DNA from: Escherichia phage vB_EcoM-UFV13
Reading direction: 5' to 3' (one strand)
Sequence record: NC_031103.1
DNA length: 64,000 bases
Shown piece by piece: positions 7,128 to 62,826 of the stretch. The translations under genes and the position numbers were made by a program. A model generated the notes under the pieces. That model was not told where the DNA came from. It did not search any database and saw nothing but the letters and a program-made list of their open reading frames with translations. Numbering within the stretch: the stretch's first letter is position 1; every line of letters begins with the position of its first letter.

Positions 7128-8639
7128 ATGACTGACATTAAAGTACATTTTTATGATTTTAGTCACGTGAGAATTGATTGTGAAGAAAGTACATTTCATG
7201 AACTCCGTGATTTCTTTAGCTTTGAAGCTGATGGGTATCGTTTTAATCCGAAGTACAGATATGGCCACTGGGATGGACGAATCCGTCTTTTAGATTATAA
7301 TCGTCTTCTTCCATTCGGCTTAGTCGGGCAAATTAAAAAGTTCTGTGATAACTTTGGCTATAAAGCCTGGATTGACCCACAAATTAACGAAAAAGAAGAA
7401 TTATCAAGAAAAGATTTTGATGAATGGCTTTCTAAATTAGAAATCTATTCAGGAAATAAAAGAATTGAACCACACTGGTATCAAAAAGATGCAGTGTTCG
7501 AAGGATTAGTTAATCGTCGTAGAATTCTTAATCTTCCAACATCCGCTGGTAAATCTTTAATTCAAGCTTTGCTTGCGCGATATTATTTGGAAAATTATGA
7601 AGGTAAAATTCTTATCATTGTTCCAACAACTGCTCTGACAACTCAGATGGCTGATGACTTCGTTGACTATCGTTTATTCAGTCATGCAATGATAAAGAAA
7701 ATTGGCGGCGGAGCATCAAAAGATGATAAATATAAAAATGATGCACCAGTCGTTGTTGGTACATGGCAAACTGTAGTTAAACAACCAAAAGAATGGTTCT
7801 CACAGTTTGGAATGATGATGAATGATGAATGCCATCTTGCTACAGGAAAAAGTATTTCATCTATCATATCAGGTTTAAATAACTGTATGTTTAAATTTGG
7901 TCTATCAGGTTCATTACGTGATGGCAAAGCCAATATCATGCAGTATGTTGGAATGTTTGGTGAAATATTTAAGCCAGTAACGACTTCTAAATTAATGGAA
8001 GATGGGCAAGTAACTGAGCTAAAAATTAATAGTATTTTTCTTCGCTATCCCGATGAGTTCACTACTAAATTAAAGGGGAAAACTTATCAAGAAGAAATAA
8101 AAATTATTACTGGGCTCAGTAAAAGAAATAAATGGATCGCTAAATTAGCTATTAAGCTTGCGCAAAAAGATGAAAACGCTTTTGTCATGTTTAAACATGT
8201 ATCACATGGTAAAGCTATTTTTGATTTAATTAAAAATGAATACGATAAAGTTTATTACGTATCAGGGGAAGTTGATACCGAAACCCGCAATATAATGAAA
8301 ACCTTAGCTGAAAACGGTAAAGGAATAATTATAGTAGCTAGTTATGGTGTATTTTCTACTGGTATTTCAGTTAAAAATCTACATCACGTTGTTTTAGCGC
8401 ACGGTGTTAAATCAAAAATCATTGTATTACAAACAATCGGTCGTGTATTACGTAAGCACGGTTCTAAGACAATAGCAACAGTCTGGGACCTCATAGATGA
8501 TTGTGGTGTTAAGCCAAAATCTGCTAATACGAAAAAGAAATATGTTCATTTGAACTATCTTTTAAAACACGGCATTGATCGTATTCAGCGCTACGCAGAT
8601 GAAAAATTTAATTACGTAATGAAAACAGTTAATTTATAA
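7128..8639 (+). CDS. uvsW: UvsW DNA/RNA helicase
   Basis: 503 aa; SF2 helicase Walker A (LPTSAGKS) and DECH box (NDECH); late promoter TATAAATA upstream. Confidence 0.95.
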   Translation: MTDIKVHFYDFSHVRIDCEESTFHELRDFFSFEADGYRFNPKYRYGHWDGRIRLLDYNRLLPFGLVGQIKKFCDNFGYKAWIDPQINEKEELSRKDFDEWLSKLEIYSGNKRIEPHWYQKDAVFEGLVNRRRILNLPTSAGKSLIQALLARYYLENYEGKILIIVPTTALTTQMADDFVDYRLFSHAMIKKIGGGASKDDKYKNDAPVVVGTWQTVVKQPKEWFSQFGMMMNDECHLATGKSISSIISGLNNCMFKFGLSGSLRDGKANIMQYVGMFGEIFKPVTTSKLMEDGQVTELKINSIFLRYPDEFTTKLKGKTYQEEIKIITGLSKRNKWIAKLAIKLAQKDENAFVMFKHVSHGKAIFDLIKNEYDKVYYVSGEVDTETRNIMKTLAENGKGIIIVASYGVFSTGISVKNLHHVVLAHGVKSKIIVLQTIGRVLRKHGSKTIATVWDLIDDCGVKPKSANTKKKYVHLNYLLKHGIDRIQRYADEKFNYVMKTVNL

Positions 8640-8652
8640 GGGCTTCGGCCCT

Positions 8653-8895
8653 TTGGAGAAAAAGATGTTACTAGAATTTAAACAATTTCTTTATGAAGCT
8701 TCTATTGATGAATTTATGGGTAAAATTGCCTCTTGTCAAACATTAGAAGGTTTAGAAGAACTTGAAGCTTATTATAAGAAAAGAGTTAAAGAAACTGAAT
8801 TAAAAGATACTGATGACATCTCTGTGAGAGATGCTTTGGCAGGAAAAAGAGCTGAATTAGAAGATTCAGACGATGAAGTAGAAGAAAGCTTTTAA
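8653..8895 (+). CDS. uvsW.1: UvsW.1 helicase accessory protein
   Basis: 80 aa acidic ORF immediately downstream of uvsW. Confidence 0.8.
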   Translation: MEKKMLLEFKQFLYEASIDEFMGKIASCQTLEGLEELEAYYKKRVKETELKDTDDISVRDALAGKRAELEDSDDEVEESF

Positions 8896-9852: not shown

Positions 9853-10249
9853 ATACTCTATTACTGGAAGCCAGTTGCAGTTTTATCTGCTCAATATCAT
9901 CAGGATTATCGATGACCGAAAAGCGTATTTCTACTATCAGAGTATAATCATCATAAACCGGTATCACATTAACTGATAATTTATCAATACGTGGCTCATA
10001 GTTTCTTACCGCGCTTTCGATGTTACGCTCAACTGTGTCAGCAGTAAGAGGAGTCATATTTTCAAAAAGCTGGTCTGATAAATCACATCCAAATTCAGGG
10101 TCAAACGGTCTTGAACCTTTTCTTGTTGTAATAATTCCCAAAAGACTGTTTTTAATTGACCTTAATCCAAGAGATCTAGAAACGTCTTTGTCCCAGTCCA
10201 TTTTCATTTCTGGGTCAATGTCAGAATAAAGCTTATTAATATTTGCCAT
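9851..10249 (-). CDS. 25: baseplate wedge protein gp25
   Basis: 132 aa, T4 gp25 length; 1-nt TAATG overlap with gene 26; split Shine-Dalgarno with hairpin upstream. Confidence 0.93.
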   Translation of the reverse strand: MANINKLYSDIDPEMKMDWDKDVSRSLGLRSIKNSLLGIITTRKGSRPFDPEFGCDLSDQLFENMTPLTADTVERNIESAVRNYEPRIDKLSVNVIPVYDDYTLIVEIRFSVIDNPDDIEQIKLQLASSNRV

Positions 10250-10875
10250 TACAATAGCTCAAAGAATTCTTTGAGTCCTCTTATTACATGAGCGTGAGTT
10301 TTTCCACACTCTGGACACTTAATTGGAACAGCCAAATAAACAGTAGGCTTTAAAAGCATATCTTTTATAGCTACAATATCTGACTCTGTGATGATAGAAT
10401 ATAAATCTTCCAGTTCTTTTTCATTTAAGTCTTCAACTGGAATGCTTTCCCCGTTAGCATGAATCGTTTCTATACATGATACTATCATGTGGGCTATATT
10501 TTTATCATCAAAAATTTTAGGGTAATGGAACTTAATTTTAATGTCACCCAGTGTATACCAGAGGTCTTCTGGTGCATCTATTTGTGTATGTAATAGATTT
10601 ATATGGGTTGGTATTTCAGTTCCACAGGTGCACTTCCAGGAGTTTTCGTGATTAACTTCACCAAGAGAATGTGCCCATAAATGAATCAACAATAGTTCTG
10701 ATTCTTGGCGGTTTAAATCTTTTGCATTTGTGCAGTCTTTGATTAGCTTTTTAACAATTACTTCTACGGAACCATTATTTTTGGCAGTAATAAGTTCTAG
10801 ATATTCTTTAAGCGTGAATGCGCGACAATTGATTATTTTAGAACCAACTCTCACGTCAAATTTGTATTCATACAT
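10249..10875 (-). CDS. 26: baseplate hub protein gp26
   Basis: 208 aa; divergent from gene 51 with shared late-promoter region. Confidence 0.9.
10250..10280 (-). promoter_or_regulatory. split ribosome-binding site of gene 25 with intervening hairpin
   Basis: Minus strand GAGGA-CTCAAAG-AATT-CTTTGAG-CTATTGTA-ATG; Shine-Dalgarno lies 26 nt from the ATG unless the hairpin forms. Confidence 0.75.
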
Positions 10876-32546: not shown

Positions 32547-34134
<1,588 letters not shown>

Positions 34135-34166
34135 AATAAAATGGGCCTTGCGGCCCACTCCTTAAA
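34135..34166 (-). promoter_or_regulatory. structured ribosome-binding site of denA
   Basis: Minus strand UAAGGAG-U-GGGCC-GCAA-GGCCC-AUUUUAUU-AUG; Shine-Dalgarno overlaps the nrdB stop and is 23 nt from the AUG unless the GNRA hairpin forms. Confidence 0.6.
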
Positions 34167-35331
34167 AATATTTTTTAAAACTCATCATAACTTTATCATC
34201 AACATCATTATCAATCTGCGCAACAAGGTAAGATGACAGTTCTACTTCTTGCGGTGCAGATTGAACATTATCAGAATTAAGATATTCACGAATCCAAGGA
34301 TACGGATGTTTAACCGGAGCATCAGTAATTGGGCATGGAAGACCGCACTGTTTCATACGAGATACAGTTAAGTAATCAATAAAGCTCCACATGCTATTTG
34401 TATTTAATCCAGGAACATCGCCATCTTTAAATAAATGAACTGCCCAGTCTTTTTCTTGACGGTTAACTTCCATGAAAATATCAACTGCTTCTTGTTCACA
34501 TTCTTGGGCAATTTTAACCCATTCATCACCATCAGTGCCAAGTTGAAGTTGACGAATAATATATTGGGTGCCTTTAAGGTGAAGCTGCTCATCACGTGCA
34601 ATGAACTTCATAATCTTGGCATTACCTTCCATAATTTCCATGTTCTTATGGAAGTTAAAGGTACATGCGAAAGATACATAAAAACGAATAGCTTCCAATG
34701 CGTTGATTACGTGCAGGCAGAGGTAAAGAGATTTCATTAGTGCTCGTTTAGTACATTCAACAACTTTGCCTAACTCTTCTTTACGAAATCCTTCTGATAA
34801 AATTCCTTCATAATCTTCAACCGCATTCTGATATTCACGAGTCTTAACTAGAACATCATCGTAATAGCGACCAATGGACTCGGCACGTTTCATAATAGCT
34901 TTATCTAATACAATCTCGTCAAATACTTTTGACGGATCAGTATAAAGATTTCGCATAATATGAGTATATGAACGGCTGTGAATAGTTTCGCTAAAAGTCC
35001 ATGTAGCAACCCATGTATCAAGACTTGGGTCTGAAATTAACGACATAAGTACAGCAGACGGCGCACGACCCTGAATGCTATCCAAAAGTGATTGATACTT
35101 CAGGTTATTAGTAAAAATATCTTGCTGATATTGAGGAAGCTTGTTAAATTGTGCAGCATCCATCATCAAGTTTACTTCTTCAGGACGCCAGAAAAATGAT
35201 AATTGCTTTTCGGTTAAATCTTCAAAAACTTTATGACGTTGAATATCGTAACGCGCAATACCGAGACCTGAACCGAAGAACATAGGTTCTTTTAAAACAT
35301 CAACTGGATTTGTATTAAAAACTGTGCTCAT
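34162..35331 (-). CDS. nrdB: ribonucleotide reductase small subunit, uninterrupted
   Basis: 389 aa continuous ORF, class I RNR beta subunit. Confidence 0.95.
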   Translation of the reverse strand: MSTVFNTNPVDVLKEPMFFGSGLGIARYDIQRHKVFEDLTEKQLSFFWRPEEVNLMMDAAQFNKLPQYQQDIFTNNLKYQSLLDSIQGRAPSAVLMSLISDPSLDTWVATWTFSETIHSRSYTHIMRNLYTDPSKVFDEIVLDKAIMKRAESIGRYYDDVLVKTREYQNAVEDYEGILSEGFRKEELGKVVECTKRALMKSLYLCLHVINALEAIRFYVSFACTFNFHKNMEIMEGNAKIMKFIARDEQLHLKGTQYIIRQLQLGTDGDEWVKIAQECEQEAVDIFMEVNRQEKDWAVHLFKDGDVPGLNTNSMWSFIDYLTVSRMKQCGLPCPITDAPVKHPYPWIREYLNSDNVQSAPQEVELSSYLVAQIDNDVDDKVMMSFKKYF

Positions 35332-53300: not shown

Positions 53301-54255
53301 CTCTTCGGACGGCGATAATAAAGCGACTGAAGGCGATTGGAATGGAAAACGACCGTTTTCCATTGATATGACTGCTGGTACTGTTCGTCTTGGCGAAAAT
53401 ACTTCTTTTGATAAAGATATTACTATTAATGGAAACATTAATTCACGAGTTAAAGCTGCCGGACAATGGAGTGTTAGCTTTTCTGCTATTTCAGATGTGA
53501 CTCGCGACAATTCTGCATTCTTAGCGAATACGGGTGGCATTTCCAAGACAAGTCAAGCTTATTACCCGCTATTTTCTGGATACAGTTTTTTAACTGACGC
53601 GGGTTATCGACAATCGTTTGAATTTGGATGGTTAGGTGTTTCTGGTACTTGGCGCCAAGGCATTATTCGCATGCGTGGTGACAACGCATCGGGGCAACAG
53701 GCTCGTTGGACTTTTGATATGGATGGAACATTTTATGCTCCTATACTATCATGCGGATCTGCGAGAGCATTCGGTGTCAATACATCAAATGGTCTCGGTG
53801 GAAACAGTATAACATTTGGTGATAGCGATACCGGTATTAAGCAAAATGGTGATGGATTATTAGACATATATGCGAACAACGCACAAGTATTCCGTTTCCA
53901 AAACGGCGATTTGTACTCATACAAAAATATAAATGCTCCAAACGTTTATATTCGTTCTGATATTCGTTTAAAATCCAACTTCAAACCTATCGAAAATGCA
54001 CTTGATAAAGTTGAAAAACTTAACGGTGTCATTTACGATAAAGCTGAATACATCGGTGGAGAGGCAATTGAAACTGAAGCGGGTATTGTGGCTCAAACGT
54101 TGCAAGACGTTTTACCAGAAGCTGTCCGTGAAACAGAAGACAGTAAGGGTAATAAAATACTCACTGTTTCTTCTCAAGCCCAGATTGCTCTTCTAGTTGA
54201 AGCTGTGAAAACACTTTCTTCTCGTGTAAAAGAACTTGAATCTAAACTTATGTAA
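50395..54255 (+). CDS. 37: long tail fibre distal subunit gp37, T2-type with C-terminal chaperone-like domain
   Basis: 1286 aa; C-terminal about 110 aa (…NGVIYDKAEYIGGEAIETEAGIVAQTLQDVLPEAV…LESKLM) resembles a cleaved intramolecular chaperone domain. Confidence 0.9.
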   Translation: MATLKQIQFKRSKTAGARPAASVLAEGELAINLKDRTIFTKDDSGNIIDLGIAKGGQIDGNVTINGLLRLNGDYTQTGGMTVNGPIGSTEGVSALVFRSMRGSFYARATNDTSNAHLWFENTNGSERGVLYSKPQSENEGVITMRVRQGTAAGAQNSEFHFISTDGGIFQARKLTALTSISTPTISVNLINHDSKAFGQYDSQSLVQYVYPGTGETNGVNYLRKVRAKSGGTIYHEICTAQTGLADEMSWWTGNTPLFKLYGIRNDGRMIIRNSLAIGTVTEGYPSSDYGNTGVMGDRYLALGDNASGLKWVRTGVIDLMANGISAATIINNGINSTKKLMVGYSRDSGTTWDFPNNNQAMFTARTDIDGNNNGDGQTHIGYNSNSKMYHYFRGTGRMAVGMSQGLLVEPGILDINTGSNRVAIRADGTFDSTQRISMRTGLFLSGDDNTNALLFKAPSGVDGTKPISWAAGTRNGQNKNDISIKVWGNAFNSVPGIRETVFEVYDSQGYYFYSQRQRPEGSETVGPVVTQFSGQVNANGSISTAGNLKVDGLSTLNGNVTMKNGLFVQGGSSITGQVKIGGTADALRIWNAEYGAIFRRSESNLYIIPTPKGAGESGGISNLRPLIIELNTGTVKMSHDVHLGDSGSGTGLLQVSNSLKTIKMICPVTINERNAALTLDSPSSSSANYLQGSKAGTRSWYVGLGGAGNDLSLYSQSYGHGLVISDNFVSISKPLKVGNAQLGTDGNITNGSGNFANLNTTLNRKVNSGFITYGATAGWYKFATVTMPQSTSTVFFKIAGGSGFNSGLFTQCNIAEIVLRTSNERPADLNAVLYTRTSGLYSAAFRNIAVNNVSGNTYDIYVYAGTYCNQLACEWSCTENATVSVIGINSSTQSPVDALPDTAVNGQVANVLNNLVDRGKAKRYVAESEIAINNQTGIRITSNSDRSGSNSVLFRNDGGNFYILLTDKNSSDGDNKATEGDWNGKRPFSIDMTAGTVRLGENTSFDKDITINGNINSRVKAAGQWSVSFSAISDVTRDNSAFLANTGGISKTSQAYYPLFSGYSFLTDAGYRQSFEFGWLGVSGTWRQGIIRMRGDNASGQQARWTFDMDGTFYAPILSCGSARAFGVNTSNGLGGNSITFGDSDTGIKQNGDGLLDIYANNAQVFRFQNGDLYSYKNINAPNVYIRSDIRLKSNFKPIENALDKVEKLNGVIYDKAEYIGGEAIETEAGIVAQTLQDVLPEAVRETEDSKGNKILTVSSQAQIALLVEAVKTLSSRVKELESKLM

Positions 54256-54257
54256 AA

Positions 54258-54273
54258 GAGGGCTTCGGCCCTC
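54258..54273 (+). other. UUCG hairpin between genes 37 and 38, preceding the gene 38 Shine-Dalgarno
   Basis: GAGGGC-UUCG-GCCCUC then UAAGGAUUUUUA-AUG. Confidence 0.6.
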
Positions 54274-54285
54274 TAAGGATTTTTA

Positions 54286-55077
54286 ATGGCAATTGTAGGT
54301 GTTCCTGGCTGGATTGGCGAATCTGCCGTGAATGAAACTGGACAACGTTGGATGGATGCTGCGATGAAAGCTGTTCGTGTTTCAGTTCCCGGTTGGATGA
54401 GTTCAATGGCTGGGCAATCTAAAGAAGTATATTATAGTGTTGGTGCTAGTAATTCTTATAATAAAGACACACTAATAAATTGGATAAAAGCTCAAGGAAG
54501 TACTCCTGTTGTTATTACTATTACAGGAAATATTGTTTCTCAATCTACTGGTGTTCCATGCTTAGATTTTCCTAGCTCATTAACTAATGCGTATGTTACC
54601 TTAAATATTAATAGCGGGGTTCATGTATTAGGTCGGGGAGGAAATGGCGGAAGTAACTCTGCTGGTGGAGCAGGAGGAACTGCAATAAATAACGGAATTG
54701 GAACTCGTTTAAGAATAAACAATAATGGTATTATTGGTGGCGGTGGCGGTGGCGGCGCAGGTGCTAGATACAATCCTTTCCCTCAAATGGATATGAAATT
54801 TGGCGGCGGAGGAGGTCGTCCATTTGGTGCTGCCGGTGCAGCCGGTGGCGGCGCAGCGGCTGCATCTGCCGGTACAATTTCTGCTCCTGGTAAAGGCACT
54901 GTTTCTGGGGTTCACCATGGAGGAGATGGTGGAGATTTGGGAGCTGCTGGCAAATCTTCATATATTCAAGGTGGTACTGGAGGAACTGTTCACTCGGGTG
55001 GTGCTGCGGGTAAAGCTGTTACTGGTAATGCTCCAACTTGGACTAAAGTTGGTACAATATATGGTGCAAGAGTATAA
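54286..55077 (+). CDS. 38: tail fibre tip adhesin gp38, T2-type with glycine-rich motifs
   Basis: 263 aa with several poly-Gly motifs (GGGGGGAGA, GGGGGRPFGAAGAAGGGAAAA); differs from the 183-aa T4 gp38. Confidence 0.88.
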   Translation: MAIVGVPGWIGESAVNETGQRWMDAAMKAVRVSVPGWMSSMAGQSKEVYYSVGASNSYNKDTLINWIKAQGSTPVVITITGNIVSQSTGVPCLDFPSSLTNAYVTLNINSGVHVLGRGGNGGSNSAGGAGGTAINNGIGTRLRINNNGIIGGGGGGGAGARYNPFPQMDMKFGGGGGRPFGAAGAAGGGAAAASAGTISAPGKGTVSGVHHGGDGGDLGAAGKSSYIQGGTGGTVHSGGAAGKAVTGNAPTWTKVGTIYGARV

Positions 55078-62810: not shown

Positions 62811-62826
62811 AGGGCCGAAGCCCTTA
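62811..62826 (-). terminator. UUCG hairpin with downstream U-run
   Basis: Minus strand AAGGGC-UUCG-GCCCUU followed by TTGTTTT. Confidence 0.55.

Follow-up and report, generated by a model that had tools for sequence, protein, structure and literature searches.

How is endonuclease II translated in T4-like phages, when the only candidate Shine–Dalgarno (SD) sequence for its gene, denA, lies on the far side of a stable hairpin from the start codon? The question is raised by the nrdB–denA junction of Escherichia phage vB_EcoM-UFV13 (NC_031103.1), which was examined within a window of 64 kilobases (kb) of this Tequatrovirus genome, 99.4% identical to Shigella phage Shfl2 over the query. The minus strand of the window carries, in order, nrdB, denA and rnlA, whose products match the Pfam families Ribonuc_red_sm, GIY-YIG and T4 Rnl1. 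Comparison of junction sequences leads us to propose, as a reading somewhat likelier to be right than wrong, that the nrdB–denA junction is a split ribosome-binding site in which a hairpin is accommodated between the SD and the AUG, the third such site after those of T4 genes 25 and 38.

Read on the minus strand, the mRNA across the junction is AAA UAU UUU UAA GGAG U GGGCC GCAA GGCCC AUUUUAUU AUG AAA GAA, and the junction of T4 itself (NC_000866) is identical. Its parts, in window coordinates, are the following.

34162..35331, minus strand: nrdB, ribonucleotide reductase small subunit, 389 amino acids (aa), intronless (open reading frame (ORF); Pfam Ribonuc_red_sm, E 2.6e-37).
34158..34164, minus strand: UAAGGAG, the proposed denA SD, composed of the nrdB stop codon UAA (34164-34162) and GGAG (34161-34158).
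34157, minus strand: single U between GGAG and the stem.
34143..34156, minus strand: hairpin GGGCC-GCAA-GGCCC, a G/C stem of 5 base pairs (bp) with a GNRA tetraloop, supported by folding and covariation; 5' arm 34156-34152, loop 34151-34148, 3' arm 34147-34143.
U34157-A34142, minus strand: optional sixth stem pair.
34135..34142, minus strand: AUUUUAUU, U-rich single-stranded tail, the spacer to the AUG and, in the T4 clade, the candidate terminator U-tract.
34132..34134, minus strand: denA start codon AUG, placed by the conserved N-terminus and the PDB 2WSH construct.
33724..34134, minus strand: denA, endonuclease II, GIY-YIG, 136 aa (ORF, Pfam).
34156..34158, minus strand: in-frame GUG within GGAGUG, the T4 RefSeq start (144 aa), probably not the real start.

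The stem begins 5 nucleotides (nt) past the nrdB stop codon and ends 8 nt short of the AUG. From the last G of GGAG to the A of the AUG the distance is 23 nt, which falls to 9 nt when the 14-nt hairpin is taken out. The original prediction, made from the sequence of the window, had given the order SD, hairpin, tail and AUG correctly to the base and had arrived at the same count for the two spacings, while the overlap it described between the SD and the nrdB stop can be read directly on the minus strand as UAA fused to GGAG. The hairpin it had drawn is likewise recovered by RNAfold in both the minimum free energy (MFE) and the centroid structure, with a core of −11.5 kcal/mol, or −12.2 kcal/mol when the closing U-A pair is included.

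The junction was compared across 36 IMG/VR loci, further loci that a DenA profile recovered, and several phages from GenBank, which gave about 25 distinct junction variants of T4-like phages with DenA identity down to 57%. Where denA follows nrdB, one order is kept throughout (nrdB stop, (A)AGGA, a 5–7 bp G/C stem with a tetraloop, 5–9 U-rich nt, AUG), in Tequatrovirus, Mosigvirus, Gaprivervirus, Marfavirus and further lineages to that limit of identity; the record of phage mar005P1 also carries the hairpin. In an alignment of 22 distinct junctions, 95.1% of stem cells are paired and at four of the six stem pairs both partners have changed in a compensatory way (GC to AU, GC to CG), a degree of pairing and covariation reached by none of 500 shuffles and one that collapses when the register is slid. 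RNAalifold returns the same 5-bp helix as the consensus, with no other pairs. Of the 22 aligned variants 17 have a UUCG loop, and the window has GCAA; the others have GUAA or one-step derivatives (UUUG, UUAG, CUUGA), such that GCAA or GUAA belongs to the T4 clade and UUCG to most lineages. Only on the mRNA-sense strand is the loop an extra-stable tetraloop, and selection therefore acts at the RNA level: judged by this comparison, the hairpin is a selected RNA structure. In one locus (L012) the stem is 2 bp longer than in another (L008) and the distance from stop to AUG grows from 31 to 35 nt with the flanks the same, so that the hairpin acts as a module insertable between fixed SD and AUG flanks. 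No Rfam 15 family was matched at the gathering threshold, the best chance match being L20_leader at 23 bits against 58.7. More distant DenA relatives (L042-L046, about 40% identity) were excluded from the comparison, as they lie in a different context without a recognizable nrdB junction upstream.

As far as sequence can show, denA starts at the AUG that had originally been assigned to it. The N-terminus MK(E/D)IA.E(Y/F)SFIKY is conserved, protein conservation starts exactly at the AUG, and the crystallized endonuclease II (EndoII) construct (PDB 2WSH) begins MKEIATEY, that is, at the Met of this codon. The RefSeq entry for T4 denA (NC_000866.4 137517..137951; L038 4518-4952) starts at the GUG and predicts 144 aa, while most phage records support the AUG 24 nt downstream and 136 aa. 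An in-frame start of any kind (GUG, AUG or UUG) is present upstream in only 5 of 24 variants, a GUG at this position in only three (the window, L005 and L040), and three variants have an in-frame stop between the GUG position and the AUG. The GUG start was rejected on these comparative grounds, as it is not conserved, and the RefSeq annotation is probably an error; it has been propagated into omics tables such as Table S2 of PMC9697503.

The sequence capable of pairing with the 16S rRNA lies consistently on the 5' side of the hairpin. The UAAGGAG heptamer forms a duplex of −7.8 kcal/mol with the 3' end of 16S rRNA, and the whole 5' flank one of −8.7 kcal/mol. Among 20 scored variants, the 5' flank pairs with the anti-SD in all (−1.7 to −8.7 kcal/mol, 19 of them at −3.4 or stronger), and the 5–9 nt tail reaches −0.1 kcal/mol or weaker in every one, giving an SD-like element 5' of the hairpin in 20 of 20 and 3' of it in none. 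The GG of the non-coding 5' flank is retained while the stem sequence drifts. The distance from stop to AUG is 27–35 nt in relatives; with the hairpin looped out, the spacing from SD to AUG is 9 nt in the window and, by hand count, about 5–10 nt in relatives. The SD is thus at a non-functional distance along the linear mRNA (more than about 15 nt) and at a functional one (about 5–11 nt) once the hairpin is looped out. The T4 clade has an AAGG that spans loop and 3' arm (gcAAGGccc); it was considered as an alternative SD and set aside, being base-paired and absent from the UUCG relatives. In the curated Marfa record, ribosome-binding sites are annotated for nrdB, rnlA and alc, and none for denA.

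The likeness to T4 genes 25 and 38 that had been put forward for this junction is accurate: the split SD spacing falls from 27 to 11 nt at gene 25, an experimentally established split site, and from 22 to 5 nt at gene 38 (review by Uzan and Miller, PMC3014915, which summarizes Malys and Nivinskas 2009). Gene 25 is present in the same window with nearly the same geometry as denA. Both strands were scanned for a 4-nt SD core, 0–4 nt, a Watson–Crick hairpin of at least 5 bp, 3–12 nt without an SD, and ATG, and only two loci in 64 kb were found, denA and 10249 on the minus strand, identified as gene 25 by its product (Pfam GPW_gp25, 132 aa, MANINKLY...). Since denA matches with two different loop sizes, the scan tallied three matches, where shuffled sequence gave 0.59 on average. 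When the criteria were loosened and RNAfold was used to look for more split sites, the matches were mostly internal ATGs or noise, such as 53368 (plus strand) inside gene 37, and this second scan was discarded.

10247-10280, minus strand: gene 25 split site, GAGGA, CUCAAAG-AAUU-CUUUGAG, CUAUUGUA, AUG.

At gene 25, as at denA, the SD is too far from the AUG and a local hairpin between them restores the spacing. In the window an 18-nt hairpin begins 0–1 nt past the gene 25 SD and is followed by an 8-nt tail, making the two sites near-superimposable, and the gene 25 arrangement is conserved among close T-even phages. The hairpins themselves differ in kind. That of gene 25, at −6.4 kcal/mol, is rich in A and U, is not followed by a U-tract and forms within the coding sequence of gene 26, whereas that of denA is GC-rich and non-coding, with a stable tetraloop, and is terminator-like in T4. 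The lack of a U-tract is reflected in a d-score of −59 for the gene 25 hairpin (a d'Aubenton-Carafa-type score with modern energy parameters, to be read as a relative ranking only). Gene 25 has been assayed by mutagenesis and probing. At the gene 25 site, the upstream frame, presumably that of gene 26, crosses the hairpin and ends in a UAA that shares bases with the AUG (UAAUG). T4 gene 38 follows the same principle at the late 37–38 junction, with a linear spacing of 22 nt to compare with 23 nt at denA. The phage studied here has a T2-type gene 38 (263 aa) with the opposite junction order of stop, UUCG hairpin, AAGGA, 6 nt and AUG; this junction, at 54225-54290 on the plus strand, reads UAA-A-AGAGGGC-UUCG-GCCCUCU-AAGGAUUUUUA-AUG, with the SD past the hairpin, unlike that reported for T4 gene 38.

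These features suggest the following course of denA initiation. As no promoter of its own was found, denA would be read from transcripts passing through nrdB, in which UAAGGAG, 23 nt upstream of the AUG, would be the sole sequence able to pair with the 3' end of 16S rRNA. The 14 intervening nt would fold as a very stable GC hairpin with a GNRA cap (UUCG in most relatives), and the 30S subunit would loop this hairpin out, leaving the single U and AUUUUAUU as 9 unpaired nt between SD and AUG. As unfolding the region from −30 to +15 would cost about 20 kcal/mol, the hairpin would be accommodated by the 30S subunit and not melted. In the T4 clade, the window included, the hairpin and the UUUUAUU that follows it probably have a second, co-transcriptional role as a leaky intrinsic terminator or a stabilizer of the 3' end of the nrdA–nrdB mRNA; leaky termination would hold the nuclease mRNA low or late. 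Coupling of denA to nrdB termination is plausible. Of the split site as first put forward, the anatomy, the 5' placement of the SD, the covarying stem and the conserved AUG have stood, while the translational role of the hairpin, comprising use of the upstream SD and a need for the hairpin in translation, is something that we infer, as is termination. In the searchable literature neither the region in which denA initiates nor an nrdB–denA terminator was found described, although an earlier mention is possible.

A number of observations weigh against the split-site reading. No experimental work on how denA is translated turned up in the literature that could be searched. The SD is very weak in two loci, L031 and L032 (−1.7 kcal/mol), and the near-constant total spacer of 29–31 nt may reflect a mere lack of indels. 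In the T4 clade, RNAfold prefers a helix of 9–10 bp in which GGAGU is paired with AUUUU, three of the pairs being G-U; in the ensemble the SD is unpaired only 10–40% of the time, and about 4.7 kcal/mol is needed to free it. In L017 and L033 UAAGGA is likewise paired with the tail, and other relatives have no such pairing at all. One IMG/VR contig, L026, has neither hairpin nor SD and joins the two genes through an AUGA overlap, and the device is therefore dispensable if stop–start coupling replaces it. In Krischvirus a different gene precedes denA, and a GNRA hairpin with UUUGUUGU is followed by a canonical SD. Behind seven other hairpins of the window a canonical SD and an AUG follow after 0–8 nt, which puts the SD 3' of the hairpin, and the denA hairpin, too, may exist for transcript-level reasons only. 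The junction of L026 (1460-1510; IMGVR_UViG_2974786931_000001) lacks the 27-nt spacer, with a T4-like nrdB 3' end (…SFKKYL*) overlapping an L024-like denA start; it looks recombinant and could be an assembly artifact. Overlaps are used in Aeromonas phages as well.

The seven hairpins, mostly with UUCG loops, belong to a larger population. The window has 22 GC-rich tetraloop hairpins, a tenfold enrichment over the 2.2 +/- 1.4 of its dinucleotide shuffles, and 12 of the 22 carry UUCG on the sense strand. Those with the SD downstream are as follows.

8638-8653, plus strand: hairpin upstream of a canonical SD and AUG.
54257-54274, plus strand: the same, at the gene 37–38 junction.
63053-63036, minus strand: hairpin upstream of a canonical SD and AUG.
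62825-62810, minus strand: the same.
60418-60403, minus strand: the same.
41015-40998, minus strand: the same.
25492-25477, minus strand: the same.

Six of the seven have no U-tract (d-scores of −27 to −57), and the hairpin at 62825 on the minus strand is followed by UUGUUUU (d = −5); the hairpin–SD–AUG order thus forms a recurrent intercistronic module that is not terminator-like. As their SDs lie downstream, such hairpins exist for reasons beyond SD bridging, most likely mRNA-end protection or insulation. Extra-stable C(UUCG)G and GNRA tetraloop hairpins were reportedly described in T4 intercistronic regions by Tuerk et al. in 1988. The denA hairpin is of the same class, with a short G/C stem, a UUCG or GNRA loop (C(UUCG)G in relatives) and a place between cistrons. 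It differs in the side on which the SD stands: all seven of the other class members before a start codon have it 3' of the hairpin, and denA is the only GC-rich hairpin in the window with the SD on its 5' side. This placement is conserved and hence no accident of one genome. In origin the denA hairpin may be an intercistronic hairpin of the ordinary kind that was later co-opted.

Among the alternatives to a split site, the one that survives best, although we consider it unlikely, is that the hairpin is a transcript-level element only. It would serve as a terminator or attenuator and as a barrier to 3' exonucleases, denA would be expressed at a low level from read-through, and initiation would take place without the upstream SD, either through reinitiation by ribosomes that have terminated on nrdB, whose stop is 27 nt upstream, or through S1-assisted binding at the AU-rich tail. 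The hairpin of the T4 clade has the look of a terminator, with a GC stem of 6 bp (the U-A pair included), a stable tetraloop and then UUUUAUU, and a d-score of +24.7 in T4 and the window, third among the hairpins of the window after two obvious terminators at +36 and +45. Several GenBank records label it 'terminator', and the tails of 22 variants are 65% U, compared with 28% at positions −8 to −1 of 88 crudely called genes of the window. This likeness is not conserved. A GC stem followed by a U-tract is found in the window, in T4 and in 9 of 19 lineages, and is lacking in the other 10, for example with the tails ACUUUAUU, of Mosigvirus type and predicted not to terminate, and GUAAAGCU; the d-score is negative in 10 of 19 (−43 in L007, −38 in L031), and TransTerm makes no call at the RB69 junction, so that termination is not the feature that all lineages conserve, yet every one of these lineages retains both the hairpin and the SD upstream of it. 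A general terminator scan of the window did not list the denA hairpin; our guess is that its stem was extended through G-U pairs, leaving a tail no longer rich in U; the d-score given for denA is that of the 5–6 bp core, scored separately. A search from the nrdB start to denA turned up no convincing motif of an early, middle or late promoter, and a strong terminator would therefore deprive denA of transcripts. As no promoter was found for denA and only 8 nt lie between stem and AUG, the hairpin can be at most a leaky terminator or attenuator.

Expression data from T4 bear indirectly on termination, whether as a second role or as the sole one. In the RNA sequencing (RNA-seq) time-course of Wolfram-Schauerte et al., denA is classed as 'middle' among 'early' neighbors (nrdA, nrdB.1, nrdB and rnlA; PMC9697503 Tables S2, S4), and the only other 'middle' gene in the T4 block is mobE (PMC9697503; T4 137517-140416), which stands behind a validated terminator. 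In T4 both genes lie directly downstream of a hairpin with a short U-tract. The terminator inside T4 mobE is leaky, stopping 30–50% of transcripts as mapped by 3' rapid amplification of cDNA ends (3'-RACE) and RNase protection, and the nrdA/mobE transcript gives a northern band of about 4 kb (PMC2790892). The denA hairpin resembles the mobE terminator (Wilson and Edgell 2009) as a short-U-tract hairpin of the same nrd transcription unit with a nuclease gene downstream; it differs in that the mobE terminator has a 9-bp stem in a coding region, whereas the denA hairpin, of 5–6 bp, is intercistronic and lies between SD and AUG. Krischvirus denA is also behind a terminator-like hairpin, for which TransTerm predicted an equivalent terminator in RB49, 'denA<--ORF225c' (Nolan et al. 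2006, supplement), and L026 shows that denA can be expressed through a stop–start overlap without an SD. A terminator alone leaves unexplained the invariant non-coding (A)AGGA directly 5' of the stem and the absence of an SD from the tail, when other junctions of the same genome have their SD after the hairpin. In the Krischvirus phage Brandy (L047 1245-1300) the junction is made up of GGCGGGA-GAAA-UCCCGCC and UUUGUUGU, followed by the canonical SD GAGGAAAGGA.

Two further stretches of the transcription unit were noted. At 33672-33723 on the minus strand, just past the denA stop, a MotA-box-like TGCTTCCA and TACTAT stand at about the right spacing, along with a small hairpin, CCACA-UGGAG-UGUGG. 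By its sequence this may be a middle promoter for rnlA, in which case denA would be the sole gene dependent on read-through of the hairpin. Upstream, the nrdA–nrdB spacer of the window is 51 nt and, unlike that of T4, is without mobE, nrdB.1 and I-TevIII; it contains a small hairpin at 35375-35358 and a TATGATATAAT motif at about 35382.

Quite improbable, in our estimate, is a translational repressor in which an extended helix hides the SD until a ribosome that finishes nrdB opens this helix at its base and so unmasks the start of a toxic nuclease. The T4-clade folding described above is what this alternative predicts, as the SD is paired in both the MFE and centroid structures, with an unpaired probability of 0.1–0.4 and an extension worth about 4–5 kcal/mol; the SD is fully paired in L017 and L033 (UAAGGA with CUUUAU in relatives), and every variant has its SD overlapped by the stop codon. 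Hairpins that sequester ribosome-binding sites are known for I-TevI, Aeh1 mobE, T4 segB and gene e (PMC3014915), and the resemblance extends to local RNA structure at the translation start of a potentially toxic nuclease. In those systems, however, the SD, the AUG or both are within the conserved helix, whereas the conserved helix at denA excludes both. Pairing between the flanks neither is conserved nor covaries, and a conserved SD–tail helix was rejected when RNAalifold kept only the 5-bp core. L019, L031 and L039 leave the SD mostly unpaired; the pairs are mainly G-U and A-U, as expected of any purine-rich SD beside a U-rich tail, and SD:anti-SD pairing, at −7.8 kcal/mol, more than repays the 4.7 kcal/mol needed for opening. 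Masking of the SD is accordingly regarded as a lineage-specific damping and not as a conserved function.

More doubtful again is the idea that the junction is chiefly an RNA-processing site, cut by RegB in GGAG or by RNase E in the AU-rich tail, with the outcome that nrdB mRNA, stabilized by the hairpin, is parted from a denA mRNA that has been inactivated. An unpaired AUUUUAUU next to a stem-loop does resemble an RNase E site. GGAG within the SD of an early gene is the RegB motif (PMC9409239, PMC2988021), but it is not conserved here, most relatives having GGAC, GGAU, GGAA, GGUA or GGCG, and denA is not named among RegB targets in reviews (PMC3014915, PMC9409239). Processing would also leave the conserved geometry of SD, hairpin and AUG unexplained. 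That the hairpin is a functionless chance inverted repeat has in its favor the weakness of the pattern count when taken by itself (three matches where 0.59 are expected and the shuffle maximum is 4), and is effectively refuted, mainly by conservation, through the covariation, the 95% pairing across 22 variants and the identity of the sense-strand tetraloop.

Returning to the split site, a more elaborate scheme can be built upon it, to which we attach little credence: a ribosome-gated attenuator linking three events, through which nrdB translation would license nuclease synthesis at the levels of both transcription and translation. A ribosome tailing RNA polymerase and paused at the nrdB stop would cover the 5' arm, as the stem starts only 5 nt past the stop, and would in this manner block the terminator and let transcription reach denA, while uncoupled transcripts would end at the terminator. 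On exit of the ribosome, the hairpin would refold and assemble the split SD, and might pass the same 30S subunit on to the AUG.

Only two split SD sites, those of T4 genes 25 and 38, are established, and they serve as textbook evidence that the 30S subunit accommodates a folded insert. If the reading of the nrdB–denA junction is true, this third case would broaden the class, both by its deeper conservation and by a different kind of hairpin, GC-rich and capped by a tetraloop, with the denA variants constituting a natural compensatory series for experiments. It would explain the expression of endonuclease II without a canonical ribosome-binding site or a promoter of its own. The 'terminator' labels at the denA junction in many phage records would then be only a partial account, and the junction suggests that a single 14-nt element may serve transcription, through attenuation and 3' stabilization, as well as translation.

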